This document shows positions 598 to 63,005 of a stretch of 64,000 bases of DNA, piece by piece. A program made the translations under genes and the position numbers. Every line of letters begins with the position of its first letter. The first letter of the stretch is position 1. The notes beneath the pieces were generated by a model. It did no database searches. It was not told the origin of the DNA and worked only from the letters and a program-made list of their open reading frames with translations. Origin of the DNA: an uncultured Acidobacteriota bacterium (GTDB lineage Bacteria > Acidobacteriota > Blastocatellia > Pyrinomonadales > Pyrinomonadaceae); contig CAWBSB010000014.1 of NCBI GenBank assembly GCA_963791265.1, positions 42,837-106,836 on the forward strand, given 5' to 3'.

Positions 598-640
598 CGG
601 TCAGCAATAGAATCGAATCGCCGAGCTATGGAGAGTAGGT

Positions 641-750
641 ATTAGACAGGATTAACAAGATTGACAGGATGAAAAGAAACAGATTCAAGCTTCACTGTCC
701 TGCCTCTTCTGCTTAATCTTGAAAATCCTGTTAATCCTGTCTATTTCTTC
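641..750. repeat. GACAGGAT-family decamer-repeat palindromic element (copy 1)
   Basis: attagacaggattaacaagattgacaggat ... aatcctgttaatcctgtctatttcttc, between convergent genes. Confidence 0.85.
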
Positions 751-766
751 TTCTCTTGACCCTCAA

Positions 767-4938: not shown

Positions 4939-4975
4939 ATAAACCTCTGTAGAGCTCATAACAAAACTACCGTAA

Positions 4976-5092
4976 GGAAGAAATAGACAGGATTAACAGG
5001 ATTATCAAGATTAAGAAGACAGGGCACGTCAGGGCAGCTTGAATGCTTATTCTTTCATCCTGATAATCTTGTTAATCCTGTCTAATTCCTTC
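4976..5092. repeat. GACAGGAT-family element (copy 2)
   Basis: ggaagaaatagacaggattaacaggattatcaagattaagaagacaggg ... catcctgataatcttgttaatcctgtctaattccttc. Confidence 0.92.
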
Positions 5093-5101
5093 TCTGTTTT
5101 C

Positions 5102-9330: not shown

Positions 9331-9411
9331 GGAGTCTGGAGTCTGGCAGTCTGGAGTCTGGAGTCAAAGACAAGCTATTGTTTTTGACTCCAGACCCCAG
9401 ACTTCAGACTC
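9331..9411. repeat. heptamer-repeat hairpin (GGAGTCT array / CAGACTC array)
   Basis: Left arm ggagtct ggagtct ggcagtct ggagtct ggagtc; right arm gactc cagaccc cagactt cagactc. Confidence 0.85.
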
Positions 9412-13721: not shown

Positions 13722-13723
13722 AG

Positions 13724-13796
13724 CAGTGGTCGGTGGTCAGTGGTCAGTTAAAAAACTGATTCTTACTGACCACTGACAACCGGCCACTGGCCACTG
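13724..13796. repeat. heptamer-repeat hairpin, family B (CAGTGGT / ACCACTG)
   Basis: cagtggt cggtggt cagtggt cagttaaaa ... ctgaccactgacaaccggccactggccactg. It fills the gap from the acyP stop (13719-21) to the apt ATG (13800). Confidence 0.9.
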
Positions 13797-13799
13797 ATT

Positions 13800-19002: not shown

Positions 19003-19228
19003 CTTAGAAGCTGTTTGAAAAGTCTCAGAAAGCCCCGCAGGGGCGAAATGTGAGAGCCTGTGGCAACGCCACAGGGAAAGATTCCAGTTTATTCATCAAG
19101 CCCTGAAGGGGCGGAATAAGGGTGACATCAATATTGCTGCCCTTCAGGGCTTCATCAGGTTGTCTATGTCTAGACCCAGTGGGCTATCACATCGTCGCCC
19201 CTTCGGGGCTTTTCAAACAACTTCTAAG
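19003..19228. repeat. nested-palindrome element, variant (gccccgcaggggc / cctgtggcaacgccacagg / aagccctgaaggggcgg)
   Basis: Termini cttagaagctgtttgaaaag and cttttcaaacaacttctaag. Same hairpin order as the main family, with different stem sequences. Confidence 0.85.
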
Positions 19229-19477: not shown

Positions 19478-19620
19478 AAAGCAGCGAATGCTTCTTGTCT
19501 TTATCCTGTCTATCCTGTCCATCCCTGCTCGAATCCGGCTGAGTAACCACTCACGGCTTAGATTCTTCCTGAACCAGTAGATACGCGCTCTCGCCTGAGA
19601 ACCCTGCCTGATCTCGAAAG

Positions 19621-19890
19621 TCACTTCCGGCGGGCGGGTAGTTTCGTGGGCAGATCAAGCTCGTCGTCAATCAAAACATCTACAATAACACCCGCAACGC
19701 GAGCATAACGCAGAAGAACCATCAGCGTTGGCTCGGATTTGTCTAACTCATAATCCGAGATTCTTGTATAAAGAATCTCATCCTCAACGTCTAACTGCCT
19801 GTGCATCTCGGTTTGAGAAAGACCGAGAGCCAATCGAATCTGTAACAGTTTTTCCGCAAGGCGTTTTGGCCGCTGGCGCGCGTGTCCCAT
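19621..19890 (-). CDS. XRE-family HTH transcriptional regulator (paralog 2)
   Basis: About 60% identical by eye to the 18352-18627 product. It has the same LLQ(V/I)RLALGLSQ.EM and LLRYAR...DVLIDDELDLP blocks. Confidence 0.8.
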   Translation of the reverse strand: MGHARQRPKRLAEKLLQIRLALGLSQTEMHRQLDVEDEILYTRISDYELDKSEPTLMVLLRYARVAGVIVDVLIDDELDLPTKLPARRK

Positions 19891-19972
19891 CAGGCGCTAC
19901 CTCCTGACAGTATGCCACCTGTGCTTAGAACTTCGGCTTCAATTCCAACTCATACATACTCGGCTTAGCTCA

Positions 19973-26989: not shown

Positions 26990-27007
26990 AGCGCCGAACA
27001 AAGCAGA

Positions 27008-27125
27008 GAAGAAATAGACAGGATTAACAGGATTATCAAGATTAAGAAGACAGGGCATGTCAGGGCAGCTTGAATGCTTAATTCTTTCATCCTGATAATC
27101 TTGTTAATCCTGTCTATATTTCTTC
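27008..27125. repeat. GACAGGAT-family element (copy 3), near-identical to copy 2
   Basis: By eye it differs from 4976-5092 at only three small positions: c/t in ggcaYgtc, a 1-nt indel in gctta(a)ttc, and the last arm bases. Confidence 0.92.
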
Positions 27126-27545
27126 TCGGTTTTTAATTTTCGGCGAGAAACGAACAATCGTTGCGCCCCAGCTTCCGGCTTCGGGTGGAGCATCCGTCCA
27201 GTCTTCAACGAAAGATGTCTGCGCCAACACGCTGCGTACCAGCTCGCGCTGCACGCCTTTGCCCTTACCGTGAATAATCCGCACGCTCCTGTAACCCGCC
27301 GCGTGAGCCTCAGCCAGATACTCTATGACGACGCGCTTCACGTCGCGCGGCGCGATGGTGTGAAGGTCAAAGACATCAAGAATCTCCAGCCGGATGGGTT
27401 CGGGGAAGGGATTGAAAGGATCAATCTCCTCTTCATCCTCCATCCCGCCGAAATCCTCTGACTTGCTGAAATTATTCCGCTCTGTTCCGTGATGAGCACG
27501 GGACAGCTTAACTTTCCATCTTTTTAACCATTGAAGGAATCGCAT
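27114..27545 (-). CDS. Smr (MutS2-related small nuclease) domain protein
   Basis: LDVFDLHTIAPRDV...GYRSVRIIHGKGKGVQRELV is an Smr pattern. The stop codon lies inside the 27008-27125 repeat arm. Confidence 0.75.
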   Translation of the reverse strand: MRFLQWLKRWKVKLSRAHHGTERNNFSKSEDFGGMEDEEEIDPFNPFPEPIRLEILDVFDLHTIAPRDVKRVVIEYLAEAHAAGYRSVRIIHGKGKGVQRELVRSVLAQTSFVEDWTDAPPEAGSWGATIVRFSPKIKNREEI

Positions 27546-27567: not shown

Positions 27568-27789
27568 GTCTTTGACCCTGAAAGGGTCACATACAATAGC
27601 CGGGGGCAGAGCGTAGCGTCGCCCCCGGTACTCCATGGAAAATGATTCCCGACCCTGAAGGGGTCGCATATTCAACATTGGATATACGACCCCTTCAGGG
27701 TCGAAATCTTTGCTCCTGCTGTTTCCGGGGGCGACGCGCGCACGCGCTTGCCCCCGGCTATTATATATGACCCTTTCAGGGTCAAAGAC
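27568..27789. repeat. nested-palindrome element, variant (gaccctgaaagggtc / ccgggggc...gcccccgg / cgaccctgaaggggtcg)
   Basis: Terminal gtctttgaccc...gggtcaaagac. Keeps the acaatagcc / ggctattat linkers of the main family, but the stems are different sequences. Confidence 0.85.
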
Positions 27790-36813: not shown

Positions 36814-37061
36814 AGAAAACACTCCTTCGCCCGAAGGCTCTTCAAACGAGCACTGAGAAAGCTTCAACGAGGCGGGATGATTTAAGATTGCGCCGAACGC
36901 CGGAAATTATATGACTTGGCGGACGACCCGTGCAACCACATACCGCCTCCTCTTTCGACATGTATCCTCCCGCCTCTCCTTGGCACCATCAATGATAGCC
37001 GCCCATTCATATAAGGTAAAATGAAAAATCTTGCGCTTCTTGTTCAGAAATACTTATAATT

Positions 37062-37150
37062 CAGTGGTCAGTGGTCAGTAGTCGGTGGTCAGTTAAAAGC
37101 AAAACGCTTTTGTTCTTAACTGACCACTGACCACTGACCACTGACCACTG
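37062..37150. repeat. heptamer-repeat hairpin, family B
   Basis: cagtggt cagtggt cagtagt cggtggt cagttaaaag ... cttaac tgaccac tgaccac tgaccac tgaccac tg. The LysR ATG follows 4 nt later. Confidence 0.9.
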
Positions 37151-37154
37151 ATTC

Positions 37155-38045
37155 ATGCAGATTGAGACGCTCAAAATCTTTTGTGATCTGGTCGAGACGC
37201 AGAGTTTCTCGCAGGCGGCGGAGCGGAATTTCGTGACGCAGTCGGCGGTCAGCCAGCAGGTGCGCGGGCTGGAAGAGAAGTTCAAGCGTCGCCTGTTGGA
37301 GCGCGTGCGCGGGCGGCGCGAGGTGCGCGTGACGGATGCCGGACGGAGTTTTTACGAAGAGAGCCGGAGCGTATTGGCCGCTTATGGTGGCTTGCAGGAG
37401 CGCATGCGTAGCCTCGATGGAGCGGTGAGCGGGACGGTGCGTGTGGCGACGGTTTACAGCATCGGCCTGCACGAGTTGCCGCCCGTCGTGCGTCGCTTCA
37501 TGGCGCTTTATCCGGCAGCGAAGATTGATCTCGAATACAGCCGCACGACGCGCATCGTGCGTGATGTGTTGAGCGGCGCGATTGAGCTTGGCATCGTCGC
37601 TTACCCGGAAAAGCGTCGTGGATTGACCATCACGCCTCTGCCCGGCGACCGTCTCGTTCTCATCTGTCCGCCATCGCATCCTCTGGCGGCGCGAAAGAAA
37701 GTTAAAGCCGCAGAACTCGGCGGGCAGGACTTCGTGCATTTTGAGCGCGACATCCCGACGCGCCGCGCGACGGATCGCATCTTCAAGGCGCATGGTGTGG
37801 CGGTTCATCGCGTCGCAGAGTTTGATAACATCGAGACGATCAAGCGCGCCGTCGAGGTCGGCTTCGGGCTAGGGATAGTTCCGCGCCCAAGCGTCCTGGA
37901 TGAGCAAAGGAGCGGTCAACTGGCGGTCGTCGCACTGGCCGAACCCGAATGGACGCGCACCGTCGGCATCATCCACAGAAGCGACCGCACGCTCGGCATC
38001 GCCGCGCGGAAGTTTATCGAATTGCTGAAGAGCAGTGATAAGTGA
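37155..38045 (+). CDS. LysR family transcriptional regulator
   Basis: N-terminal HTH (FCDLVETQSFSQAAERNFVTQSAVSQQVRGLE) plus a LysR substrate-binding-like C-terminus. Confidence 0.88.
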   Translation: MQIETLKIFCDLVETQSFSQAAERNFVTQSAVSQQVRGLEEKFKRRLLERVRGRREVRVTDAGRSFYEESRSVLAAYGGLQERMRSLDGAVSGTVRVATVYSIGLHELPPVVRRFMALYPAAKIDLEYSRTTRIVRDVLSGAIELGIVAYPEKRRGLTITPLPGDRLVLICPPSHPLAARKKVKAAELGGQDFVHFERDIPTRRATDRIFKAHGVAVHRVAEFDNIETIKRAVEVGFGLGIVPRPSVLDEQRSGQLAVVALAEPEWTRTVGIIHRSDRTLGIAARKFIELLKSSDK

Positions 38046-38117
38046 TGGGTGATAGGTGATAAGAAAGAACGGTTGTTTTCTCTTATTACCTATCACCTAT
38101 CACTTATCACCCATCAC
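38035..38117. repeat. heptamer-repeat hairpin, family A (GTGATRG / CYATCAC)
   Basis: gtgataa gtgatgg gtgatag gtgataa gaaa ... cttatta cctatca cctatca cttatca cccatcac. The LysR stop TGA (38043-45) lies inside the left arm. Confidence 0.9.
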
Positions 38118-38124
38118 TGTCTTT

Positions 38125-39546
38125 ATGGAGTTAACAAAATTGTCGGCCAGGACACTCGCTGCGATGATGCGTGGGCGAGAGGTTTCTCCTGTGGAAGTCG
38201 TCGAGGCTTACTTGCGCCGGATTGAGCAGTTGAATCCGCAGCTTAATGCTGTTGTGACGATTGCGCCGGATGCAATCGAGTGGGCGCGGGAGGCCGAAGA
38301 CGCGATTATGCGTGGACGTGAGATTGGGATGCTGCACGGCGTTCCCCTCACCATCAAGGATACGATTGAAACCAAAGGATTGAGGACAACGAGCGGGTCG
38401 CTGCTTCGTGCGGCGCATGTTCCCGAGACGGATGCCACGGCGGTGACGCGCTTGAAGGCTGCGGGCGCGATTATTCTTGGTAAGACTAATGTGCCGGAGA
38501 TGGCGATTCCTTATGAGTGCGATAACCTCGTCTTTGGCAGGACGAATAATCCTCACGACTTGATGAGAACTCCGGGCGGGTCGAGCGGCGGCTGTGCGGC
38601 GGCCATCAGCGCGTGCCTCACACCCGCTGGGCTGGGCAGCAACCTTTCGGGTTCGATTCGTGTGCCCGCGCACTTTTGCGGCATCGTCGGGTTGAAGCCG
38701 ACGATTGGGCGCGTGCCTTCAGCGGGACATTTTCCGCCAGCCATGGGGGCGCTCTCGCTCGGCGCAGTCGTCGGCCCGATGGCACGCTACGTCGAAGACC
38801 TCTCTTTGCTCTTGAATGTTCTGATGGGAGTGAGCGCGGCTGACTCTGCTTCCGCGCGGGTGGAGGAATCATTGGAAGAGGCGTTGATGAAGATGCGCGG
38901 CTGGCGCGTCGCATCATATGTGAACGAGATCGGCGGCGCGGTGACGGATGAGACGCGGCAGGCGATTCACGCGGCGATGCGTGTGCTGGAAGAGGCTGGG
39001 TTCGTCCGCTGTGAAGAAGAGCCGCCCGGTCTGGAACAGGCGGGCGCTTTATGGCCTCGGTTGTTCTCGCGTGCGTCCATGATTCAATTGCGCGACGTTT
39101 ACAGCGGGAAGGAAGAGAAAGCCGGGGCGGTTGTTCGTGCCGTGCTCGCTGCCGCAGACAAACAGCCTTCGCCCGCGCTTGATGAGTCTGCCAGCGCGTG
39201 GACTGAGCGAGACCGTCTACGCCTCAATCTCTTGAAATGGATGGAGAGAACTCCTCTCATCATCGCGCCTGTCGGGGCAGTTGCGGCGTTCGAGCATGGC
39301 GCGCGCCGCGTTAAAGTGGGCGCGGAGATGTTAAGCGTCTTCCGCGCCTTCGATTATTCGCGCGCCTTCAACGTTCTCGGTTTACCTGCCGTCACTGTTC
39401 CGGCGGGACGCTCTCTTGAAGGCTTGCCCATCGGCGTTCAGATTATCGGCAGACCGTTTGAGGAAGAAGCCGTCCTCGCCGCAGCTTCCGTCCTCGAAGC
39501 AGCGCTCGGCGGGTGGATGCGACCGCCAAACGCGATGATGGCGTGA
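38125..39546 (+). CDS. amidase-signature family amidase
   Basis: GGSSGG motif (TPGGSSGGCAAAI) and a Ser-cisSer-Lys-type context. Start at MELTKL (38125), since the ORF-track extension crosses the repeat. Confidence 0.85.
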   Translation: MELTKLSARTLAAMMRGREVSPVEVVEAYLRRIEQLNPQLNAVVTIAPDAIEWAREAEDAIMRGREIGMLHGVPLTIKDTIETKGLRTTSGSLLRAAHVPETDATAVTRLKAAGAIILGKTNVPEMAIPYECDNLVFGRTNNPHDLMRTPGGSSGGCAAAISACLTPAGLGSNLSGSIRVPAHFCGIVGLKPTIGRVPSAGHFPPAMGALSLGAVVGPMARYVEDLSLLLNVLMGVSAADSASARVEESLEEALMKMRGWRVASYVNEIGGAVTDETRQAIHAAMRVLEEAGFVRCEEEPPGLEQAGALWPRLFSRASMIQLRDVYSGKEEKAGAVVRAVLAAADKQPSPALDESASAWTERDRLRLNLLKWMERTPLIIAPVGAVAAFEHGARRVKVGAEMLSVFRAFDYSRAFNVLGLPAVTVPAGRSLEGLPIGVQIIGRPFEEEAVLAAASVLEAALGGWMRPPNAMMA

Positions 39547-39550
39547 CGGA

Positions 39551-39660
39551 GAAGAATTTAGACAGGATTTACAGGATATACAGGATTAAAAAGAGATAAG
39601 AATCAGTGCTACGCTTTTCTCTTCATGTTCATCTTGTTAATCCTGTCTAAATTCTCTTCC
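39551..39660. repeat. GACAGGAT-family element (copy 5)
   Basis: gaagaatttagacaggatttacaggatatacaggattaaaaag ... catcttgttaatcctgtctaaattctcttcc. Confidence 0.85.
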
Positions 39661-39770
39661 GTTACGCCCTTTATTCCTCGTCAACGAATCCGTTATAGTT
39701 AGCGCACAACAGCAGCAATGAGCATTCGGGCGCGTGCCCATCAGTTTCAGCTACTTCAGCGGAGGTCTCA

Positions 39771-42177: not shown

Positions 42178-42316
42178 GAAGGATGAGGGATGAACAGCAG
42201 GAGTCAGCACACAGGAGACAGGAGACAGAGTAGAACCAAAAGCGGTTTCCGCCTCTTCATTCTGACTCCTGACTCCTGAATTCTGGATTCTGTTTTTCTT
42301 CATCCCTCATCCCTTC
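42178..42316. repeat. heptamer-repeat hairpin (GGATGAG outer, AGGAGAC/CTGACTC inner)
   Basis: Outer stem gaaggatgagggatgaa / ttcatccctcatcccttc. Inner caggagtcag...aggagac aggagac versus ctgactc ctgactc ctg. Confidence 0.85.
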
Positions 42317-44757: not shown

Positions 44758-44785
44758 AATAGAGTTTCAATGGGATAGGGATCAG

Positions 44786-44940
44786 GGACCACAGATGAAC
44801 GCTGATGGACACGGATGAAAAAAAAGAATTCATCACCAAGGCACAAAGCCACTAAGAAAATTAAGCAGTCTCCCTTTTGTGTCTTCGTGTCTTTGTGGTT
44901 AATTTCCGTATCTGCGTTTATCTGCGTCCATCTGCGGTCC
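44786..44940. repeat. decamer-repeat hairpin with an inner second hairpin
   Basis: ggaccacagatg aacgctgatg gacacggatg pairs with catccgta-type units (ccgtatctgcg tttatctgcg tccatctgcg gtcc). Inner accaaggcacaaagccac / gtgtctttgtggtt. Confidence 0.85.
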
Positions 44941-44952
44941 GTAACTTTTGCT

Positions 44953-46381: not shown

Positions 46382-46531
46382 GTAGGACAGGCATTCCTGC
46401 CTGTCAAGCGTGCGCCAGCACGCTGATAGTTTTCGCTGACAGAGTATTTAGTTTTCGCTGACAGAGTATTCGCGCTGACGCGCTCAATGACAGGCAGGAA
46501 TGCCTGTCCTACGACAGACAGGAATGTCTGT
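46382..46531. promoter_or_regulatory. divergent-promoter region with three copies of a 19-20-bp palindrome GACAGGCANNNNTGCCTGTC and a 22-bp tandem duplication
   Basis: gacaggcattcctgcctgtc (46386-405), gacaggcaggaatgcctgtc (46489-508) and the degenerate gacagacaggaatgtctgt (46513-31). tagttttcgctgacagagtatt occurs twice (46427-48 and 46449-70). Confidence 0.6.
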
Positions 46532-46627
46532 TATACAGGCGCTCGTTGACGTTGCGTCATCTGTGCCGCTACAATCCGCGCCGTAGTTTCATTTTCCGAA
46601 AAGACCGCTTCAGTCATTATCAAGCTC

Positions 46628-47494: not shown

Positions 47495-47498
47495 AGCA

Positions 47499-47568
47499 GT
47501 GATAGGTGATAGGTGATGGATGATAAGAGAAGGCGTTTTCCTATCACCTATCACTTATCACCTATCAC
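47499..47568. repeat. heptamer-repeat hairpin, family A
   Basis: gtgatag gtgatag gtgatgg atgataa gagaa ... cctatca cctatca cttatca cctatcac. Fills the interval from the stop (47492-94) to the ATG (47576). Confidence 0.9.
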
Positions 47569-47575
47569 TTGAATT

Positions 47576-48259: not shown

Positions 48260-48294
48260 TCTATTTCGTCGGCGGAAGGAATTGATAATTAGTT

Positions 48295-48906
48295 TTGAAT
48301 TGGCTCTGGGACAAGATTATAAACGGTCTGACGCACGTCAAAGATTTTTTACTCGCTTATGGCCCGTTCGGGTTGTTCGCCATCGCGCTGCTGGATTCGG
48401 CCTTGATTCCTTTGCCCGGCGGGGCCGATGTCGTGATGATTCTGCTGACGATTCAGCATCCTTCGTGGATGGTGATCTACGCGGCGGCAGCCACCTTGGG
48501 TTCGGTCGCCGGGTGCGTGATTCTCTATTACATTTCCCGCAAAGCCGGACGCCGTGCCCTCGAACGCTTTTCCGAAAGTAAGCAGGCGCGCGTCAAAGGT
48601 TTGATTGATCGTTACGATGTGCTCTCGGTTCTCGTCGCCTCAATTCTGCCTCCGCCCTTTCCCTTCAAGTTGTTTGTTATTAGCAGCGGCGTCTTCGGGC
48701 TAAACATTGTGCGCTTCGCCATCGCCATCGCGGTTGGGCGTGCCGTTCGTTTCCTCCTGGAAGGTTATCTGGCGGTGCACTACGGCGATCAAGCGGACGT
48801 TTTATTCAAACTCTATTTCCCCTGGATTGGCCTGGGGCTGGCCTTACTCATTATTCTGATTTTTGTCGGGCGGAAATTGTGGCGTAAAAGGGCAAAGGCA
48901 GTATGA
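48295..48906 (+). CDS. DedA/YqaA (VTT-domain) family membrane protein, paralog 2
   Basis: TTG start. LPPPFPFKLFVISSG and GRAVRFLLEGYLAVHYG parallel paralog 1. Confidence 0.7.
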   Translation: MNWLWDKIINGLTHVKDFLLAYGPFGLFAIALLDSALIPLPGGADVVMILLTIQHPSWMVIYAAAATLGSVAGCVILYYISRKAGRRALERFSESKQARVKGLIDRYDVLSVLVASILPPPFPFKLFVISSGVFGLNIVRFAIAIAVGRAVRFLLEGYLAVHYGDQADVLFKLYFPWIGLGLALLIILIFVGRKLWRKRAKAV

Positions 48907-48907
48907 A

Positions 48908-48982
48908 GTGATAGGTGATGGGTGATACGTGATAAGACAGAACGCGTTTTTCTCTTATCACCTATCACCTATTACCTATCAC
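48908..48982. repeat. heptamer-repeat hairpin, family A (between convergent genes)
   Basis: gtgatag gtgatgg gtgatac gtgataa gacag ... cttatca cctatca cctatta cctatcac. Confidence 0.9.
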
Positions 48983-48986
48983 TTCT

Positions 48987-49863: not shown

Positions 49864-50436
49864 TTGCGAGCCGAAGAAGTCATCGAAAGATTCAGGCGAA
49901 CGGGCGCGTTGCTCGAAGGCCACTTTGTTTTGTCGAGCGGATTGCACAGCACAAACTATTTGCAGTGCGCGCTGCTGCTGCAACATCCGGCGGAAGCCAC
50001 GCGGTTCGGCAGCGCCCTTGCCGAACAATTCCGCGATGAAAGAATCGAGACAGTCGCCGCGCCCGCGATTGGTGGATTGATAATTGGCTACGAAGTCGCA
50101 CGCTCGCTCGGCGCGCGATTCATCTGGACCGAGCGCGACGCTGGCCAGATGACACTGCGTCGCGGCTTCACCGTCCGCTCAGGCGAGAGCGTGCTTGTCG
50201 TCGAAGATGTCATCACTACGGGAGGCTCTACGCGCGAGACGGTCGAAACACTACGCAATGCCGGTGCACGAGTCGTCGGCGCGGCTTCCATCATTGATCG
50301 TTCTTCGGGGCGCGCGGATGTCGGCGTCCCGCGCGTCGCCCTCGCCACTCTGGATGTGCCTGCGGTCGCCCCCGCCGCCTGCGAAGCCTGCGCGCGCGGC
50401 GAAGAGGCCATCAAACCGGGAAGCAGGAAGCCGTGA
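49864..50436 (+). CDS. pyrE: orotate phosphoribosyltransferase
   Basis: LLEGHFVLSSGLHS and the PRPP motif VLVVEDVITTGGSTRET. TTG start. Confidence 0.9.
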   Translation: MRAEEVIERFRRTGALLEGHFVLSSGLHSTNYLQCALLLQHPAEATRFGSALAEQFRDERIETVAAPAIGGLIIGYEVARSLGARFIWTERDAGQMTLRRGFTVRSGESVLVVEDVITTGGSTRETVETLRNAGARVVGAASIIDRSSGRADVGVPRVALATLDVPAVAPAACEACARGEEAIKPGSRKP

Positions 50437-50505
50437 TGGGTGATGGGTGATAGGTGATAAGAGAAACGCTTTTACCTATCACCTATCACCTATCACCTAT
50501 TACCT
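50433..50505. repeat. heptamer-repeat hairpin, family A
   Basis: gtgatgg gtgatgg gtgatag gtgataa gagaaac ... cctatca cctatca cctatca cctatta cct. The pyrE TGA (50434-36) lies inside the left arm. The truA ATG (50506) is the next base after the right arm. Confidence 0.92.
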
Positions 50506-51264
50506 ATGAATTATAAGTTGACGCTTCAGTACGACGGCACGGATTTTCATGGCTGGCAGGTGCAGGGTGCGGAGCGCACGGTGCAGGGCGAGTTGGCGCG
50601 TGTGCTGACGCTGCTTGAGGGAAGCGCGGTTGTGGTGCATGGGTCGGGGCGGACGGATGCGGGCGTTCATGCAGAGGGGCAGGTGGCGAGCGTGCAGCTT
50701 AATCGTGAGTTCGCGCCCGATAAGCTGCTGAGCGCGATTAACGGAAATCTGCCGCGCGATGTGCGCGTCATAGAGGCTGCGATAGTTCCCGATGATTTTC
50801 ATGCTCGTTATTCGGCGCGTGGAAAATCTTACGTCTATAGAATCTTCAATGCGCCCGTCATGTCGCCCTTCTGGAGTCGTTATGCGTTGCACGAAGCGCG
50901 GCGGCTGGACATCGAACGCATGCGAAAGGCCGCACGGCTCTTTCTGGGCGAGCATGATTGGACTGCCTTTTCTGCGGCGCAGTCGGACACAAAGACGCGC
51001 GTCAGAACTATCACCGGCCTTGAAGTGACGGAGTTGATGGACGAACGAGGGCGCGGGCGGCTCATTGAAATCAGGCCAAGCGCCGACGGATTCCTGCGCT
51101 ACATGGTGCGCTCCATCGCGGGCACGCTGCTCAGCATCGGTCGCGGGGAAATGAAAGAGGAACTCATCACGCGCGCGATAAACACCCGCGACCGCTCGCT
51201 CGTCGGCGCGACCGCCCCCGCACACGGCCTGACACTGGTCAGCGTAGATTACGAAGAGCAGTGA
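50506..51264 (+). CDS. truA: tRNA pseudouridine(38-40) synthase
   Basis: LQYDGTDFHGWQVQ and GSGRTDAGVHA (catalytic Asp). Confidence 0.92.
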   Translation: MNYKLTLQYDGTDFHGWQVQGAERTVQGELARVLTLLEGSAVVVHGSGRTDAGVHAEGQVASVQLNREFAPDKLLSAINGNLPRDVRVIEAAIVPDDFHARYSARGKSYVYRIFNAPVMSPFWSRYALHEARRLDIERMRKAARLFLGEHDWTAFSAAQSDTKTRVRTITGLEVTELMDERGRGRLIEIRPSADGFLRYMVRSIAGTLLSIGRGEMKEELITRAINTRDRSLVGATAPAHGLTLVSVDYEEQ

Positions 51265-51296
51265 TAGGTGATGGGTGATAGGTGATAAGAGAAAAC
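51261..51296. repeat. family A heptamer array, left arm, separated from its partner by an inserted element
   Basis: gtgatag gtgatgg gtgatag gtgataa gagaaaac. The truA TGA (51262-64) lies inside it. Confidence 0.85.
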
Positions 51297-51520
51297 AGTT
51301 CTTTCTGTCCCGTCAGGGACATTTGATGATAGCCCAGCCATTCATGGCTGGGTAACAGAACGGTAGAGATGATTAAGTCCCGTAGGGACGACCGAAGGGA
51401 AGCGAGCCTCTGTTCAGTCGTCCCTACGGGATTCAACCTATAAAACCACGTTTGATTCCCAGCAATAAATTGCTGGGCTATTGTCAGCCGTCCCTGACGG
51501 GACTTTTCGATCAGCTTCTA
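51297..51520. repeat. nested-palindrome element, main family (copy 5), inserted inside a family A hairpin
   Basis: gtcccgtcagggac, cccagccattcatggctggg, aagtcccgtagggacg...cgtccctacgggatt, cccagcaataaattgctggg, gtccctgacgggac and a tcgatcagcttcta terminus. Confidence 0.9.
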
Positions 51521-51522
51521 AA

Positions 51523-51599
51523 TGGTAGGTAATGAGAGAAACGCTCGTTCCTATCACCCATCACTTATCACCTATCACCTATCACCCATCACCCATCAC
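51523..51599. repeat. family A hairpin remainder (degenerate left arm plus long right arm)
   Basis: tggtaggtaatgagagaaacgctcgtt then cctatca cccatca cttatca cctatca cctatca cccatca cccatcac. Confidence 0.85.
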
Positions 51600-51685
51600 T
51601 GCTTTTCCGTTTGCGTTGCAGCGTATGCGGAGATTAAGATTCAGCGGCTGACGTTAAAGTAAATCAGAGACGTGGAAGAATTGCG

Positions 51686-52477
51686 ATGCTCGCGGATTTC
51701 GCAACAGTTATAAAGAAGGGAACGCGCGACGAGACGTTGCTGGCGAGCATCGTCTGGGATCGTCTGCCGCGTCATGTGGCTGTCATCATGGACGGCAACG
51801 GGCGCTGGGCGGCGCTTCGCGGGCAGCCTCGCATCGCAGGCCATCGAGCGGGCGTTGAAGCCGTTCGCGCCACAGTTGATACAGGCGCGCGCCTTGGCCT
51901 TCAGGCGCTCACGCTCTACGCTTTCTCGACAGAGAATTGGAAGCGCCCGCGTCTTGAAGTTGACGCTTTGATGCGTATGCTGAGGCGTTACATTCGCCTC
52001 GAAATAGACGAGATTGACCGGCAGAACATACGCTTTCAGGCCATCGGGCGTACCGACTCGCTCGCGGTAAACGTGCGACGCGAAATTGATAGAGCGACCG
52101 AGCGAACATCCGGTAATACCGGCATGGTCTTGAGCGTCGCTTTGAATTACGGCGGGCGGGCAGAGATTGTTGACGCCGTGCGCGCCGCCATGCAGCGCCT
52201 CCTGGCCGAAGGGAAAAGCGCAGACGAGTTGACGGAGGAGAGCATTGAGCGTGAGCTTTATACACGCGGCTTGCCGGAGCTTGATCTATTAGTTCGCACC
52301 AGCGGCGAGATGCGTCTCTCAAACTTCCTGCTCTGGCAAACAGCCTACAGCGAGATTTATGTGACCGAAACTCTCTGGCCGGATTTTCGCCGCACACAAC
52401 TCCTTGAAGCCATCCTTGATTTCCAGCGGCGCGACCGTCGCTTTGGCGGCCTCAAGCTGGTAGCAAATGCGAAATGA
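51686..52477 (+). CDS. uppS: di-trans,poly-cis-undecaprenyl-diphosphate synthase (isoprenyl transferase)
   Basis: HVAVIMDGNGRWA, FSTENWKRP and RTSGEMRLSNFLLWQ. Confidence 0.92.
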   Translation: MLADFATVIKKGTRDETLLASIVWDRLPRHVAVIMDGNGRWAALRGQPRIAGHRAGVEAVRATVDTGARLGLQALTLYAFSTENWKRPRLEVDALMRMLRRYIRLEIDEIDRQNIRFQAIGRTDSLAVNVRREIDRATERTSGNTGMVLSVALNYGGRAEIVDAVRAAMQRLLAEGKSADELTEESIERELYTRGLPELDLLVRTSGEMRLSNFLLWQTAYSEIYVTETLWPDFRRTQLLEAILDFQRRDRRFGGLKLVANAK

Positions 52478-52484
52478 ATAAGGA

Positions 52485-52562
52485 GTGATAGGTGATGGGT
52501 GATAGGTGATAAGAGAAACGCTTTTTCTTATCACCTACCACCTATCACCTATCACCTATCAC
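52485..52562. repeat. heptamer-repeat hairpin, family A
   Basis: gtgatag gtgatgg gtgatag gtgataa gagaaac ... cttatca cctacca cctatca cctatca cctatcac. Lies between the uppS stop (52475-77) and the cdsA ATG (52567). Confidence 0.92.
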
Positions 52563-52566
52563 TCGA

Positions 52567-53385
52567 ATGTCTCGAATCATCACCGCGCTCATCGTCCTTC
52601 CGGTTCTCATCGCTTCAATCTTGATTTCATGGCTCGCGCCTTTGTTTGTGGCGCTGGCGCTCTCGGCGATGGTGCTGGGGCTATACGAGTTCTGGCTGCT
52701 GGCGAAGCGGCGTGGGATTAAGCCGGATGTGGTCGTCGGGTTTGCGGGTGCGGCGGCGCTGTTTACAATCTTCTATTTCGACAGGCCGTCGGAAGCACCT
52801 TTCTTGTTATTACTCATCCTGCCCGCGTTGACGATTGCTGCTCTGGCGGCGGCGATGCTGCGCGGCGCTCCCTTCGACAATATGATTGCGTCGGTGGGGG
52901 CGACCGTGCTGGGCGTGATGTACGTCGCCTTTCTCGGCGGTCATCTCATCGCCGTGCGAATGGGTTTTACGCAACAGCGCGCGGCGCACATGCTGGGTTT
53001 TTTCTTCCTCGTCATCATGGGGTCTGACACGGGAGCTTATTACACTGGCCGCGCCTTTGGTCGGCACAAGCTCGCGCCTAAGATAAGTCCGGGGAAGACG
53101 TGGGAGGGCGCAGTCGGAGGCATGCTAGCGAGTTTGTTGATGGGAGGAATCGCGCACTACTGGTTCTTCCCCGAATTGCCATTAAAGCTGGCGCTTCCGC
53201 TCGCGGCGCTGATGAATATTCTGGGCGTGCTCGGAGATTTAACGGAAAGCGCACTAAAACGTGGTGCGGGCGCGAAAGATGCGGCGCAGATTCTCCCCGG
53301 ACACGGCGGCCTGCTCGACCGCCTCGATAGCTTGCTCTTCAACGCACCCGTCCTCTACTATTTTGGACGACTGTATTTTGGATAA
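52567..53385 (+). CDS. cdsA: phosphatidate cytidylyltransferase
   Basis: SDTGAYYTGRAFGRHKLAPKISPGKTWEG signature. Multi-TM. Confidence 0.92.
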   Translation: MSRIITALIVLPVLIASILISWLAPLFVALALSAMVLGLYEFWLLAKRRGIKPDVVVGFAGAAALFTIFYFDRPSEAPFLLLLILPALTIAALAAAMLRGAPFDNMIASVGATVLGVMYVAFLGGHLIAVRMGFTQQRAAHMLGFFFLVIMGSDTGAYYTGRAFGRHKLAPKISPGKTWEGAVGGMLASLLMGGIAHYWFFPELPLKLALPLAALMNILGVLGDLTESALKRGAGAKDAAQILPGHGGLLDRLDSLLFNAPVLYYFGRLYFG

Positions 53386-53483
53386 GTGGTCAGTTAAAAG
53401 AAAAACTTTTATTGTCTCGGAGTCTAATTCCAGCACCGCCGAGCGCCACCGGTTCTTAACTGACCACTGACCACCGACCACTG
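53386..53483. repeat. heptamer-repeat hairpin, family B (short left arm, larger loop)
   Basis: gtggtcagttaaaag ... cttaac tgaccac tgaccac cgaccac tg. The cdsA TAA (53383-85) abuts it, and the dxr ATG (53487) follows 3 nt later. Confidence 0.85.
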
Positions 53484-53486
53484 ATT

Positions 53487-54680
53487 ATGAAAGGTATCGC
53501 CATACTCGGCTCGACCGGCTCAATCGGGCGCAACACTTTGCGCGTGGTTGAGTCTTTTGGCGAAGGAGAGTTTCGCGTCGTCGCGCTGGGCGCAGGGCGC
53601 AACGTAGGATTGTTGGCCGAGCAGGTGGCGCGGCATCTTCCTGAGCTTGTCTCTGTTGAGACGGAAGAGTACGCGCGGCAGCTTCGCACCAAATTGTTCG
53701 AGCGTGATGTGGATTTGCCGCGCATCGTCGTCGGTGAAGAGGGGTTGGTTGAAATCGCCACGCACGCCGAGGCCGAGATAATCGTCAGCGCAACTGTCGG
53801 CGCAGTTGGGTTCGTCCCGACCTTGCGTGCGCTCGAAGCGGGGAAGCGTGTGGCGCTCGCCAACAAAGAGACGCTCGTGATGGCGGGTGAGTTGATGACG
53901 CGCGTTGCTGCCAGGTCAGGCGCAGAGATTCTGCCGGTTGATTCCGAGCACAACGCGCTGCACCAGTGTTTGAAGGGCGAGAAGCGCGAGGATGTGCGCC
54001 GTCTGGTGCTGACGGCATCGGGCGGGCCGTTTCGCACGAAGAGCGCAGGCGAGATGGAGACGGCGACCGTCAGCGAGGCGATGCGTCATCCGACGTGGCA
54101 GATGGGCGCGAAGATCACGATTGATTCGGCGACGCTGATGAACAAGGGATTTGAAGTTATCGAAGCCCGCTGGCTCTTCGGCTTCGGGGCGGACGAGATA
54201 GACATCCTCGTTCATCCTGAGTCGGTTGTTCATTCGATGATCGAGCTGGTTGACGGCTCTGTTATCGCGCAGATGGGCGTCACGGACATGCGCCACGCGA
54301 TTCAGTACGCGCTGACCTATCCGGCGCGTTATCCTTGCGGACTGCCGCCGCTCGATTTAACACAGCTCTCGACGCTCCATTTTGAAGCGCCCGACATGGA
54401 GCGTTTCCCCTGCATCGCGCTTGCTTACCGCGCATTGCGCGAGGGCGGGACGCTTGCCGCCGCGATGAATGCCGCGAACGAAGAGGCCGTCCATGCTTTT
54501 CTAAACGAGCGGATTTCCCTGACGGATATTCCGCGCGTCATCGAAGAAGTGATGGACGGGCACAAGACGGAACCCGTTGAAAATCTGGAAGTCGTGCTTG
54601 AGACTGACGGCGCTGCGCGGCTGGCGGCGGCGGCAGTAATCGAACGCCTCGCGCGGACGACGAATGTGGCAGCAGGATAG
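53487..54680 (+). CDS. dxr: 1-deoxy-D-xylulose 5-phosphate reductoisomerase
   Basis: ILGSTGSIGRNTL, LANKETLV, DSEHNA and HPTWQMG. Confidence 0.93.
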   Translation: MKGIAILGSTGSIGRNTLRVVESFGEGEFRVVALGAGRNVGLLAEQVARHLPELVSVETEEYARQLRTKLFERDVDLPRIVVGEEGLVEIATHAEAEIIVSATVGAVGFVPTLRALEAGKRVALANKETLVMAGELMTRVAARSGAEILPVDSEHNALHQCLKGEKREDVRRLVLTASGGPFRTKSAGEMETATVSEAMRHPTWQMGAKITIDSATLMNKGFEVIEARWLFGFGADEIDILVHPESVVHSMIELVDGSVIAQMGVTDMRHAIQYALTYPARYPCGLPPLDLTQLSTLHFEAPDMERFPCIALAYRALREGGTLAAAMNAANEEAVHAFLNERISLTDIPRVIEEVMDGHKTEPVENLEVVLETDGAARLAAAAVIERLARTTNVAAG

Positions 54681-54713
54681 AAATGCAAAATGAAAAATGA
54701 AAAATGCAAAATT
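54681..54713. repeat. heptamer tandem array AAATGMA x4-5
   Basis: aaatgca aaatgaa aaatgaa aaatgca aaattg, directly after the dxr stop. Confidence 0.85.
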
Positions 54714-54770
54714 GTGGCGGAGAACCATATTTGATTAACCTTAGTTCGGCATCAAAAGAATGGCCTCCAC

Positions 54771-54912
54771 CAGCCCCGGAGGGGCGACAGAAATTCAAGA
54801 TACGTTGTAACGCATATTGGACTTCTGTCGCCCCTTCGGGGCTCGATAATGATGTTTGTGCTGTGACCCCGGGCTAGCGCCCGGGGCTACAGTCTGCCGC
54901 CCCTGACGGGGC
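54771..54912. repeat. nested-palindrome element, partial variant (centre plus right arm)
   Basis: cagccccggaggggcgacagaa ... ttctgtcgccccttcggggct, ccccgggctagcgcccgggg and gcccctgacggggc. Confidence 0.75.
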
Positions 54913-54974
54913 TATTGCCTTTTGCCTTTTTACTTTTTACTTGTTCCCTTTTGCCTTGTTCGCCTTTGCCTTGT
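54913..54974. repeat. T-rich heptamer tandem array (TTTGCCT / TTTTACT)
   Basis: attgcct tttgcct ttttact ttttact tgttccc ttttgcc ttgttcg cctttgc cttg. Resembles the right arm of the 28942-29030 hairpin. Confidence 0.8.
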
Positions 54975-55056: not shown

Positions 55057-56538
55057 ATGACGGACGATAACAAGACGGCCAAACCGAAGCTACCATTATC
55101 GCGCATCGTCGTTCCGGCGCTCGTCGCGCTGGCAGTCATTTTCTGGTACAAGGGTTATATTGATGTAAAAAGTATCCTTGCCTTCATTTTCATCCTGGGC
55201 GCGGCGGTCGTCATCCACGAGTTTGGCCATTTTATCGTCGCTAAGATGCTGAAGATTCGCGTCGAGACGTTCTCCGTAGGCTTCGGCCCGCGCATCTGGG
55301 GACGAAAATGGGGCACAACCGATTATCGGCTGTCGGCAGTTCCGCTCGGCGGCTACGTCAAACTCGGCGGCGATGAATCGAACGCCCCCATCGAAGGCGA
55401 GGGCGCGTCAGACATTCCCGAAAAAGAGCAGTTTAATTTGCGCCCGCGCTGGCAGAAGTTTCTGGTCGCGGTGGCTGGGCCGGTGATGAATATTCTAACG
55501 GCGCTGGCCATTCCTTTCATCGGCGGGTTGATGTATGGCGTGCCTGTTCCTCCGGCTCCGGTTGTCAAAGAGATCAGACAGGGCGGCGCGGCTGAGGCGG
55601 CAGGGCTGCGTGTCGGTGATCGCATCGTCGTCTTCAACGGCTATGAGCATCCGAAATGGGATCGCATCAGGGGCGACGTTCTGCTGTCGCCGGAAAGACC
55701 GCTGCCTGTAGTCGTGGAGCGCGAAGGGCAGCGCGTCAATCTCACGCTGACGCCCGCGAAAAGGGTGGAAAGCGGAGAGATTATGGGCGACATGGGCTTC
55801 GATCCGGATTACGGTGATCTGCCAATCATCGTTGCTGGCGTGACGCAGGATTCGCCCGCCGCAAAATCAGGCTTGCAGCGGGGTGATCACCTCATCAGTA
55901 TCGGCGGCGAGGCCGTGAGCAGCAGCCAGCAGATAGTAAATTACATCAAGGCGCATCCGACAGAGCCAATTCAGTTCGTGATTGAGCGCGGAGGGCAGCG
56001 CAAAGAAGTGACCGCGACGGGACGCATGGCGGGCGGAAGACTGGGTCTCTCGCCGGATGAAGAGTTGCCGCGCGAACACGTCGGTACACTTGCGACCGCT
56101 CGTTACGCATTGGATTTCAATCTTGAAATCCTGCGTCTTACGGGCAAGGCTCTGGGGCAACTCTTTAGCGGAGAACGCTCCGCGCGCAATACTGTTTCGG
56201 GGCCGCTTGGGATTTATGAAGCAGCCTCGAACGCCGTTAACGAAGCGGGCTGGGATGGACTCTTCGCCATGCTGGGATTCCTGAGCTTGAGTCTGGGCGT
56301 TTTCAATTTGCTGCCAATCCCTGTGCTTGACGGTGGCGCAATCTTCCTGCTGCTCGTCGAGGCTGTCATGGCTCTGGGCGGGTGGAAATTGTCCATGCGC
56401 GTGCGCGAGCGAATCCAGCAGGTCGGCTTCGTCATGCTGCTTCTCTTGATGGGATTCGTCATCACCAACGATTTGCTCAAAAAAGTCTCGCGCAGCCAGG
56501 AAGAGACGAAGCCTCCGGCGGCGACGCAACAGAAATAA
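55057..56538 (+). CDS. rseP: RIP site-2 metalloprotease
   Basis: HEFGH zinc motif in TM1, two PDZ-like segments, and NLLPIPVLDGG. Confidence 0.92.
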   Translation: MTDDNKTAKPKLPLSRIVVPALVALAVIFWYKGYIDVKSILAFIFILGAAVVIHEFGHFIVAKMLKIRVETFSVGFGPRIWGRKWGTTDYRLSAVPLGGYVKLGGDESNAPIEGEGASDIPEKEQFNLRPRWQKFLVAVAGPVMNILTALAIPFIGGLMYGVPVPPAPVVKEIRQGGAAEAAGLRVGDRIVVFNGYEHPKWDRIRGDVLLSPERPLPVVVEREGQRVNLTLTPAKRVESGEIMGDMGFDPDYGDLPIIVAGVTQDSPAAKSGLQRGDHLISIGGEAVSSSQQIVNYIKAHPTEPIQFVIERGGQRKEVTATGRMAGGRLGLSPDEELPREHVGTLATARYALDFNLEILRLTGKALGQLFSGERSARNTVSGPLGIYEAASNAVNEAGWDGLFAMLGFLSLSLGVFNLLPIPVLDGGAIFLLLVEAVMALGGWKLSMRVRERIQQVGFVMLLLLMGFVITNDLLKKVSRSQEETKPPAATQQK

Positions 56539-56605
56539 GTTACGGGTTACGAGTTTCGAGTTGCGGATTAAGCAGACTCGTAACCCGTAACTCGAAACTC
56601 GAAAC
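56539..56605. repeat. heptamer-repeat hairpin (GTTACGR / CGTAACY, with GTTTCGA / TCGAAAC)
   Basis: gttacgg gttacga gtttcga gttgcgg ... actcgta acccgta actcgaa actcgaa ac. Starts on the base after the rseP TAA. Confidence 0.9.
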
Positions 56606-56618
56606 TAAAGGCAGTTGA

Positions 56619-57734: not shown

Positions 57735-57957
57735 GTAAGTTTTTAAGCCCCGTTAGGGGCGCGTGATAATAGCCCAGCAATTTATTGCTGGGAAACAGAT
57801 TGGTAAAAATGATTGAGTCCCGTAGGGACGGCTGAATCAAGAGGCTCTTCTCTTCAGCCGTCCCTACGGGACTCAATATTTGTTCTCTGGTTTTATCCCC
57901 AGCGATAAATCGCTGGGCTATTATCAATCGTCCCTGACGGGACTTCTTGAGCTTAAT
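57735..57957. repeat. nested-palindrome element, main family (copy 7)
   Basis: gccccgttaggggc (left) versus gtccctgacgggac (right). Also cccagcaatttattgctggg, gagtcccgtagggacggctgaa...ttcagccgtccctacgggactc and cccagcgataaatcgctggg. Confidence 0.9.
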
Positions 57958-62907: not shown

Positions 62908-63005
62908 GAGTCAGGAGTCAGGAGTCGAGAGTCAGAAGTCAAATGGTCAAAAGCATTTCTTGTCTTTTGACTTCAGACTCCTGACTTCTGATTCCTGGAT
63001 TCCAG
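62908..63005. repeat. heptamer-repeat hairpin (GAGTCAG / CTGACTY)
   Basis: gagtcag gagtcag gagtcga gagtcag aagtcaa atggtca ... cttttga cttcaga ctcctga cttctga ttcctgg attcc. Confidence 0.9.

Follow-up and report, generated by a model that had tools for sequence, protein, structure and literature searches.

Short-tandem-repeat hairpins at gene junctions of an uncultured Pyrinomonadaceae bacterium: likeness to cyanobacterial repeats and a proposed origin in minimal junctions

The DNA analyzed here, hereafter the window, is a stretch of 64,000 nt from an uncultured soil member of the Pyrinomonadaceae (Acidobacteriota, Blastocatellia; assembly GCA_963791265.1, contig CAWBSB010000014.1, positions 42,837-106,836 of the forward strand). 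It contains the co-directional gene string pyrE-truA-uppS-cdsA-dxr. The nearest homologues of its TruA and UppS proteins belong to Pyrinomonadaceae/Blastocatellia Acidobacteriota. An exact look-up of the UppS sequence returned no record, and the top UppS match among the GTDB species representatives was only 64% identical and lay in a neighborhood without comparable hairpins. Pfam searches of window genes identified an acylphosphatase, two phosphoribosyltransferases (apt and pyrE), a LysR regulator, an amidase and a DedA/VTT protein; the PseudoU_synth_1, Prenyltransf, CTP_transf_1 and DXP_reductoisom domains were confirmed through the called genes of syntenic contigs. About 20 of the approximately 49 gaps between genes in the window contain hairpins whose arms are made of short tandem repeats. 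These elements occupy tandem, convergent and divergent gaps at a density of about 20 copies per 64 kb, each copy being intergenic or overlapping terminal codons only (Table 1), and they belong to a class of high-copy, fast-evolving DNA palindromes that is lineage-wide in the Pyrinomonadaceae.

A preliminary description of this DNA had depicted the hairpins as modular, reused elements with arms made of heptamer arrays. Both statements were borne out. Tandem Repeats Finder returned paired period-7 arrays at every site, with 3.6-7.1 copies per arm, and the sequence GGTGATRGGTGATR had 39 matches in the window against 0.02 expected from shuffling. Family A (unit GGTGATR) has six copies in the window, which share the apex AAGAGAAACGCTTTT; family B (unit GGTCAGT, complement ACTGACC) has three copies and a nonamer family (unit ACAGGATTA) has five. 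The units GGAGTCT, GAGTCAG, CAGGAGW, GTTACGG/GTTTCGA and AAATGMA, as well as one decamer, are each found in a single copy. The arrangement is best seen at the pyrE-truA junction, which reads ...AAGCC GTGATGG GTGATGG GTGATAG GTGATAA GAGAAACGCTTTT ACCTATC ACCTATC ACCTATC ACCTATT ACCT ATG. Seven of eight hairpins submitted to RNA folding had predicted energies between -43 and -71 kcal/mol (z -8.6 to -15); the eighth, at the cdsA-dxr junction, is weak because its left arm comprises only about 1.3 units.

The positions of the codons bordering the hairpins were checked. The stops of pyrE (TGA, 50434-36), truA (TGA, 51262-64), LysR (TGA, 38043-45) and cdsA (TAA, 53383-85) agreed with the sequence and with the table of open reading frames (ORFs), and the starts of truA (50506), cdsA (52567), dxr (53487), apt (13800), amidase (38125), DedA (47576) and LysR (37155) were found as first given. 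That these starts yield canonical N-termini was also confirmed: in all but two of the 84 loci described below, TruA, beginning MN(Y/F)K, aligned from its first residue (the two other contigs are cut off), and the helix-turn-helix domain of LysR begins at residue 4. The amidase domain begins at residue 24. All seven starts lack a Shine-Dalgarno (SD) sequence, as had been reported, with anti-SD duplex energies of -1.7 kcal/mol or weaker; the values are about -5.6 to -10 kcal/mol in window genes preceded by AGGAG, GGAGG or AAGGA. An SD is also missing from many window genes that have no hairpin. At tight junctions, the 3' arrays finish -2 to 14 nt from the ATG and the starts are devoid of SD. A consensus scan detected no promoter-like site in the pyrE-dxr interval save one weak 9/12 match within the dxr coding sequence (53755-53782); such promoter and terminator scans are uninformative for hairpins with loops of this length. 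The notion that the hairpin joins the halves of a split SD, a situation known from T4 genes 38 and 25, was considered and discarded as a general explanation. Purine runs do occur 5' of the stem at pyrE-truA (AGGAAG), uppS-cdsA (TAAGGAG), acyP-apt (AAAGG) and the Rieske gene (GAGGAAG), but they are missing at LysR, dedA1, dxr and ispG. Furthermore, the pyrE AGGAAG encodes part of the conserved KPGSRK motif, and the uppS TAAGGAG belongs to the stem and does not occur in the syntenic contig L084.

The stop/stem-base/start geometry is therefore real: at seven junctions, the distance between the stop and the 5' base of the stem is 0-8 nt, and that between its 3' base and the ATG is 0-7 nt. The preliminary description had placed such a hairpin in every gap from pyrE to dxr. 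A hairpin is indeed present in each, but the one between truA and uppS touches only the stop and is separated from uppS by an 85-nt spacer conserved in relatives. From this geometry, it had been proposed that the elements are a dedicated translational-coupling cassette, in which the stem brings the stop and the next start together and sequesters the leader, until a ribosome terminating at its base opens it and that ribosome, or another nearby, initiates at the SD-less start. The lack of SD at hairpin-adjacent starts fits this proposal, and the region from -15 to -1 was predicted to be more paired beside hairpins (unpaired probability 0.32, versus 0.45 elsewhere; p=0.08). However, the AUG itself lies just beyond the stem, and the predicted unpaired probability from -3 to +12 was 0.49 next to hairpins and 0.48 in other genes. 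By this measure, the region from the AUG to +12 is not predicted to be occluded. Placement likewise argues against coupling as the reason for the elements' existence. They are also found in convergent gaps (48905-48985, 631-755, 27005-27126) and in divergent gaps with no upstream ORF (5' of LysR at 37056-37151, and of the Rieske gene at 9331-9411), and in long co-directional gaps (truA-uppS, dxr-rseP and amidase-next gene) the hairpin sits at the stop, 84-102 nt away from the next start.

Features common to these hairpins were extracted from 615 kb of pooled sequence comprising the window and its relatives (contigs L081-L164). Hairpins whose arms measured 16 nt or more numbered 224; 102 of them were periodic and 70 had a period of 7. 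In the typical element, an A-rich 5' flank leads to a CAGTG clamp and then to a 5' arm of heptamers that is rich in G and poor in C (RGTNNNN in most cases). The apex is of the purine/pyrimidine type, for example AAGAGAAA-CGC-TTTCTCTT. Beyond it, the complementary G-poor 3' arm is closed by a CACTG clamp and bordered by a T-rich 3' flank. The outer clamp takes the form (A)GCAGTG...CACTGC and the arms are tandem repeats of about 25-35 nt. Polarity is pronounced: 79 of the 102 periodic hairpins have a 5' arm rich in G and poor in C, and 15 show the reverse. RGT is found in the 5'-arm unit of 55 of the 70 heptamer hairpins and AGT in 45 of the 70. All three reading frames are closed in 28/102 of the 5' arms, versus 8/102 of the 3' arms. 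The 5' flank is A-rich in 30/70 (background 5%) and the 3' flank T-rich in 18/70 (background 7%).

The flanks bring up a different function, namely that the hairpins are selected RNA punctuation: bidirectional terminators or attenuators, 3'-end protectors and/or RNase III sites that tune the expression of neighboring genes and cut the polycistronic RNA, any cleavage also releasing the downstream leader. The enrichment of A-rich flanks on the 5' side and T-rich ones on the 3' side is the mark of bidirectional terminators (examples from the relatives are CACTTTTTT, CACTGCTTTTTC and CACTGTTTTT), the stems, near-perfect over about 25-35 bp, are similar to RNase III substrates, and hairpins do lie at convergent junctions. 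In the long gaps, the order is stop, hairpin and then a spacer, probably with a promoter or a 5' untranslated region (UTR), that is conserved in relatives at truA-uppS and dxr-rseP. Structure is kept, moreover, while sequence turns over. Against these points, only 26% of the hairpins have at least five T among the 8 nt 3' of the stem, many in the window have no T-run at all and the consensus terminator scan called none. A strong terminator 0-7 nt ahead of the promoter-less essential genes truA, cdsA and dxr would be harmful unless leaky; the LysR and Rieske hairpins lie in 5' UTRs rather than at 3' ends; and distant relatives cope with overlapping or abutting genes that have no hairpin. On balance, we regard selected punctuation as unlikely.

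If pairing in the transcript were what is maintained, the sense strand would be expected to differ from the antisense strand. This was not seen. In 31 hairpins with a defined sense strand, the sense fold was the more stable in 16 cases and the antisense fold in 15 (p=0.44), and among 83 distinct tandem-junction hairpins G·U mismatches numbered 69 on the sense strand versus 55 on the antisense strand (p=0.24). Selection on the sense-strand RNA was dropped as an explanation after both tests proved null. The lack of a sense-strand G·U bias suggests that palindromy is maintained on DNA or on both strands, and it counts against coupling as well. Possible traces of DNA-level processes are visible in individual elements. 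In the L089 element each arm is homogeneous, yet every unit differs from its counterpart in the other arm at one base, a pattern that would result if homogenization within arms were the faster process. Insertions at the apex or in the loop recur (51307-51503 and the loop of 53386-53484 in the window, uppS-cdsA in L082, and the inner units of pyrE-truA in L084), which suggests renewal from the center outwards; such renewal would account for the turnover of units at a fixed position. No consistent target-site duplication was found across junctions; (R)TGA flanks the pyrE-truA element, but this equals the old stop/start overlap and is suggestive only. A search of Rfam gave no match on the heptamer hairpins, the sole non-tRNA matches being Acido-Lenti-1 (RF01687) on nested GC-rich sub-hairpins.

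The same junctions were then compared among relatives. Three syntenic contigs, L081, L082 and L084, encode TruA proteins 92%, 91% and 86% identical to that of the window, making four genomes in all; a scan of metagenome contigs supplied 80 further TruA loci (63-79% identity) with junctions anchored by tblastn, for a total of 84 loci. In the four syntenic genomes, a heptamer hairpin is present at all orthologous junctions except cdsA-dxr of L081, often with a different repeat unit. At pyrE-truA the unit is GGTGATR in the window, GGTCAGT in L081, GGTGATA in L082, and GTGATGA (outer) and GTACTGA (inner) in L084; at dxr-rseP it is AAATGMA, TCGTAAA, GTCCAAA and AAATGTA, respectively. The convergent dedA2/RNase T junction carries a hairpin in all four. 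The L081 cdsA-dxr gap (12604-12623) is reduced to 20 nt, GTGGTCAGTGGCCAGTGATT, with about 2.5 units of the left-arm type and no inverted arm, and represents either what a deletion has left or a "seed" of the hairpin present in the other three genomes. Even there, where the hairpin is missing, dxr has no SD, a point against coupling.

In more distant relatives the picture changes: the hairpin, kept in close syntenic genomes with varying units, is often absent. Among 59 pyrE-truA junctions of relatives, stop and start overlap in 10, by either 4 nt (ATGA/GTGA) or 1 nt, and are 11 nt apart in one. The others contain fillers of 36-480 nt that are heptamer hairpins built on many different units, direct G-poor arrays or unrelated GC-rich palindromes; direct arrays without inverted arm are found in L092, L094, L097, L119 and L124/138. 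Element-free gaps measure 0, 3, 8, 19 and 22 nt at rseP-ispG, and 7 and 20 nt at cdsA-dxr. At the dedA2/RNase T junction, most of the distant relatives have no element and the two genes appear overlapping or no more than 7 nt apart. Since relatives without the element show overlaps or gaps of few nucleotides, the elements created the gaps that they fill. By the same token, the ATGA/GTGA overlaps and 0-22-nt gaps of element-free relatives indicate that coupling predates the hairpin. (Automated stop-finding suggested a tail-to-tail overlap of about 18 nt between dedA2 and RNase T in L094, L124, L131, L144 and some 15 more loci.) The omp-dedA1 hairpin is an older one: GTGACAA/GTGACGA units and the apex AAGTTAGAATG are retained to about 60% identity, with the element filling the stop-start gap throughout.

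Upstream genes also take their stops from the arms. In many cases the left arm codes for the last residues of PyrE after the conserved KPGSRK, as far as the first stop within the arm (TVTSDE*, TVFSS*, TVSSKQ*). The native truA TAA, kept in L082 (10745-10765), reads GAA in the window (51253-51264) and in L081, so that three further codons (E-E-Q) are read before the TGA in the CAGTGA clamp. The repeat thus serves as a back-up stop for truA in the window and L081.

The comparative data bear on the coupling proposal in both directions. An ancestral pyrE-truA junction with a coupled ATGA overlap, which a perfect hairpin would replace while keeping stop and start close in three dimensions, speaks for it, as does the exact fill of omp-dedA1 conserved across deep relatives. 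On the other hand, some relatives carry only direct arrays with no inverted arm at all (L092, L094, L097, L124). Together with the placement of the elements, the accessible AUG and the strand symmetry, these findings make a dedicated coupling cassette distinctly improbable. On present evidence, the hairpins are probably not a dedicated coupling device, and the preliminary description is supported in part.

The explanation that we favor, to which we assign a probability of roughly 0.55, is that the hairpins are palindromic repeat elements resembling the short tandemly repeated repetitive (STRR) sequences of cyanobacteria, that they colonize minimal gene junctions, and that the stop-hairpin-start fit is mainly a by-product of a tolerated insertion site. 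The elements would arise in, or insert into, ancestrally overlapping junctions or junctions of a few bases, irrespective of gene orientation. They would persist through repeat slippage inside the arms combined with DNA-level (template-switch) correction between arms, and would be renewed by fresh hairpins emerging at the apex. The upstream ORF would run into the arm until the first stop, C-poor arms being rich in TGA, TAG and TAA, and an essential start codon would be preserved at the other edge of the element. Hence a stop would be found within the arm and a start at its edge because a palindrome entered a minimal junction and both genes were kept functional. In the G-poor 3' arm, ATG, GTG, TTG and SD-like runs would be impossible, and the A-rich 5' and T-rich 3' flanks would place a U-tract on either transcript. 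Only the polarity observed is likely to be harmless at a junction. In RNA, the element would probably act as a leaky bidirectional terminator, an attenuator or a 3'-end protector, in the manner of repetitive extragenic palindromic (REP) and STRR sequences. Translation of the downstream genes would continue, since the stem leaves the AUG and the first codons free and SD-less initiation is common here; at tandem junctions, terminating upstream ribosomes would probably assist.

Several observations weigh against this explanation. The retention of GTGACRA units and apex at omp-dedA1 to about 60% identity and, more generally, long-term strong pairing at the same junctions look like selection for structure rather than neutral persistence. 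A purely selfish model does not predict constraints on sequence such as the RGT core and the polarity of the arms. Neither a target-site duplication nor any mobilizing mechanism was identified; as to transposases, no search was aimed at them and only the 64 kb were covered. In addition, the start-proximal arm is the longer one in 10/10 non-tied hairpins of the window, a possible link to the downstream gene; over 48 junction hairpins from all loci the difference (21 versus 12, p=0.16) is not significant. A longer start-proximal arm as a "landing pad" was accordingly rejected, being true in the window and not significant over the 48 junctions. The deep conservation of omp-dedA1 and the RGT constraint keep functional readings alive.

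One such reading assigns the function to the heptamer array itself. A single-strand RNA-binding protein covering about 7 nt, for instance S1 or a cold-shock protein, would recognize a G-poor (NNNNACY)n leader and drive SD-independent initiation, as has been proposed for TAACTGA repeats; the complementary 5' arm would be a regulatory anti-sequence. The RGT/ACY core in 55 of the 70 units is in keeping with this, and direct G-poor arrays end 0-5 nt before the truA ATG without any inverted arm in L094, L097, L119 and L124. The TAACTGA repeats (PMC4679880) share this core, as do repeats of Nostoc (PMC2408588, Table 3), and the arm asymmetry of the window points the same way. Yet the asymmetry loses significance over the 48 junction hairpins, arrays also occur in convergent gaps and far from any start, and no binding protein was identified. 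Furthermore, the symmetry of the palindrome puts the same arms on both strands, and polarity can be explained otherwise, by a stop-rich 5' arm and a start-free 3' arm. We consider this reading very improbable. A broader version, which strikes us as quite unlikely, would unite these ideas in a selected expression device with a heptamer code, "RGTN4 / N4ACY", shared across phyla with cyanobacterial STRRs and Beggiatoaceae TAACTGA; a single-strand-binding factor that covers 7 nt, or the ribosome itself as it terminates, would open the stem joining the stop to the SD-less start, and the whole would replace the ancestral ATGA overlap with a coupling or attenuation module tunable by slippage. The RGT core common to the units described here, cyanobacterial STRRs and TAACTGA hints at a mutational or binding constraint that crosses phyla.

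To our knowledge, heptamer STRRs have been known in cyanobacteria since 1990 and have no accepted function or origin. The classic units CCCCAGT, TTGGTCA and CAACAGT also contain the RGT/ACY core. The Pyrinomonadaceae elements share with STRRs tandem 7-bp units, intergenic location, high copy number and inverted arrays that form hairpins between co-transcribed genes. STRR sequences, "usually made up of 7 bp repeats", form hairpins at sites including the hupS-hupL gap, and proposals for their role include transcript stability, translational coupling or termination, the function being unknown (Devine et al. 2009, PMC2670836). The coupling proposal can draw on this cyanobacterial counterpart. Repeats of Nostoc 7120 include ccactgactactgac, others being ttgtcag and ccactgac (PMC2408588); with the shared RGT/ACY core, ccactgactactgac and the ACTGACC found here are the same unit. 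The present elements differ from STRRs in their host, an acidobacterium (Pyrinomonadaceae) rather than a heterocystous cyanobacterium; in that the inverted hairpin with conserved clamp and apex is the rule; and in residing at ancestrally overlapping junctions with turnover of units at a fixed position. We found no account of any of these traits for STRRs in the literature.

TAACTGA arrays lie a few nucleotides from start codons at which an SD is rare and have been described in marine Beggiatoaceae, cyanobacteria and Bacteroidetes (MacGregor 2015, PMC4679880). They resemble the present elements in being forward heptamer arrays near a start without SD, in having a unit with ACT and in their phylogenetically scattered occurrence. 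They differ in that TAACTGA arrays are nearly all direct (one inverted set in 170), whereas arrays here are paired with their complement, are made of many different units and are also found at stops and in convergent gaps. Thus, in view of these precedents (PMC2670836, PMC4679880), the coupling idea is not new in kind, and the novelty first claimed for a modular repeat-built device of this sort did not hold: both 7-bp STRR hairpins at hupS-hupL and start-abutting heptamer arrays without SD precede it. Features that we did not find described are the occurrence in Acidobacteria, the clamp/arm/apex architecture with fixed polarity, the turnover of units at orthologous positions, and the series leading from an ATGA overlap to a hairpin-filled gap. 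A literature search on repeats of Pyrinomonadaceae or Blastocatellia found nothing relevant.

Two further comparisons are instructive. REP sequences, bacterial interspersed mosaic elements (BIMEs), REPINs and elements akin to miniature inverted-repeat transposable elements (MITEs), such as Correia and ERIC, are likewise high-copy intergenic palindromes, often located past stops or between convergent genes. They too have been assigned roles as terminators or mRNA stabilizers, serve as insertion targets for other elements and display selfish behavior. Unlike REPs and REPINs, the present elements have no GTAG/CGTC head on a 20-40 bp palindrome, and their arms are tandem repeats, not unique sequence; and unlike REPs and MITEs, they came with no RAYT or parent insertion sequence in the 64 kb, where no transposase search was made, and with no clear target-site duplication. 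The RNase III sites of the T7 early region and the split ribosome-binding sites of T4 genes 38 and 25 are unique intercistronic RNA structures, specific to the sense strand and demonstrated experimentally. They resemble the elements described here in being stable intercistronic stems with the end of the upstream gene and the initiation region of the downstream gene at their bases; the latter differ in being DNA-symmetric repeats without strand bias, with stems that are predicted.

These findings show that elements of the STRR kind are densely distributed in a phylum unrelated to the cyanobacteria, with a clear common architecture of clamp, RGT core, apex and polarity. The orthologous series from an ATGA overlap to a hairpin of -50 kcal/mol offers a comparative system for the origin and renewal of palindromic arrays, and raises a second question, that of how essential genes are translated with a very stable hairpin 0-7 nt before an SD-less start. 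For annotation, it explains repeat-supplied stops, variable C-terminal tails and starts without ribosome-binding sites in these genomes.

Table 1. Hairpins with short-tandem-repeat arms in the window. Positions are those of the window; blank cells, no value given.
Junction or setting	Repeat	Position	Relation to genes and other features	Predicted fold
pyrE-truA	Family A; (GTGATRG)4 / apex AAGAGAAACGCTTTT / (ACCTATC)4.7	50433..50505	pyrE TGA inside first unit; truA ATG follows after 0 nt	-46 kcal/mol, z -9.7
truA-uppS	Family A; 4 left and 7 right units	51261..51600	truA TGA within CAGTGA clamp	
truA-uppS, nested	Composite palindromic element, about 200 nt	51307..51503	Interrupts apex of truA-uppS hairpin; sub-hairpin matches Rfam Acido-Lenti-1	
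uppS-cdsA	Family A	52483..52564	Stop 7 nt 5' of stem; ATG 2 nt 3'	-54.9 kcal/mol, z -13.9
cdsA-dxr	Family B (GGTCAGT/ACTGACC)	53386..53484	Short left arm; loop insertion	-27 kcal/mol, z -2.6
dxr-rseP	AAATGMA / TTGCCTT arms	54681..54972	Directly 3' of dxr stop; nested GC-rich hairpins; 84-nt conserved spacer before rseP	
rseP-ispG	GTTACGG/GTTTCGA	56538..56606	Followed by AAAGG, then 9 nt to ATG	
omp-dedA1	Family A	47498..47569	Orthologous hairpin kept in relatives to about 60% identity	
dedA2/RNase T-like, convergent	Family A	48905..48985	Exact stop-to-stop fill; dedA2 TGA 48904-06, other stop 48987-89	
LysR-amidase	Family A	38033..38119	LysR ORF enters array up to TGA 38043-45; amidase ATG 5 nt past arm	
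5' of LysR, divergent	Family B	37056..37151	No upstream ORF; begins 3 nt past TTGCGC-N18-TATAAT promoter-like site, stops 3 nt short of LysR ATG	-70.6 kcal/mol, z -15
acyP-apt	Family B	13722..13797		
5' of Rieske gene, divergent	GGAGTCT	9331..9411	No upstream ORF; ends 8 nt 5' of minus-strand Rieske ATG (9322-9320)	
Between two minus-strand genes	GAGTCAG	62908..62997	Ends 2 nt short of holB ATG (62905)	
3' of a minus-strand gene	CAGGAGW	42192..42298	Adjoins stop of minus-strand gene 42328-44757	
3' of amidase	Nonamer (ACAGGATTA)	39540..39668	Overlaps amidase stop; next start 102 nt on, with GGAGG SD	
Minus-strand tandem gap	Nonamer family	4975..5093	Fills gap	
Convergent gap	Nonamer family	27005..27126		
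Convergent gap	Nonamer family	631..755		
Minus-strand tandem gap	Nonamer family, long loop	32447..32621 (approximate bounds)		
Minus-strand tandem gap	Decamer arms (TATCTGCGTC)	44784..44941 (approximate bounds)	Fills gap	

Other repeats were encountered in the course of the analysis. The composite element that interrupts the truA-uppS hairpin belongs to a second family, about 200 nt long and made of nested GC-rich hairpins (GTCCCGTCAGGGAC, ATAGCCCAGC...GCTGGG, GAGTCCCGTAGGGACGGCTGAA), with sites at 51307-51503, 19276-19439, 57745-57945 and 14884-14993, and also at 54772-54913. Matches to Acido-Lenti-1 (RF01687) fall at 51458-51504, 54867-54913, 57746-57792 (minus strand) and 57898-57944; judging from the sequence, at least these four copies of the "small RNA" look like parts of a MITE-like repeat. 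A large nested palindrome in the divergent gap at 27568-27789, with 41-nt arms that are 95% complementary and inner hairpins, represents a further MITE-like family; the gap folds to -216 kcal/mol. Hairpins with decamer arms on CACGAA / TTCGTG units lie at 2093-2166 in the window, 20302-20366 in L082 and 3518-3673 in L128. The dedA1-dedA2 gap is 35-36 nt long in three genomes (48260-48294 in the window) versus 263 nt in L082 (7509-7771), the extra length being an inserted palindromic element of the GCAGAGGACGC type, kin to the repeats at 7075-7176 of the window; this is a presence/absence polymorphism.

Two observations concern direct repeats. Tandem repeats of 21, 42 and 63 nt at 17970-18179 lie inside a 2.3-kb interval (17636-19972) for which a crude gene finder made no gene call, and probably belong to a gene for a repeat-containing protein that the finder missed. 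Finally, a perfect 22-nt direct repeat, TAGTTTTCGCTGACAGAGTATT, present twice (46427-46470), lies about 80 nt 5' of the best promoter-like site of the region, TTGACG-18-TACAAT (46546-46575), before the unannotated "omp" gene, and may be a binding site for a regulator.

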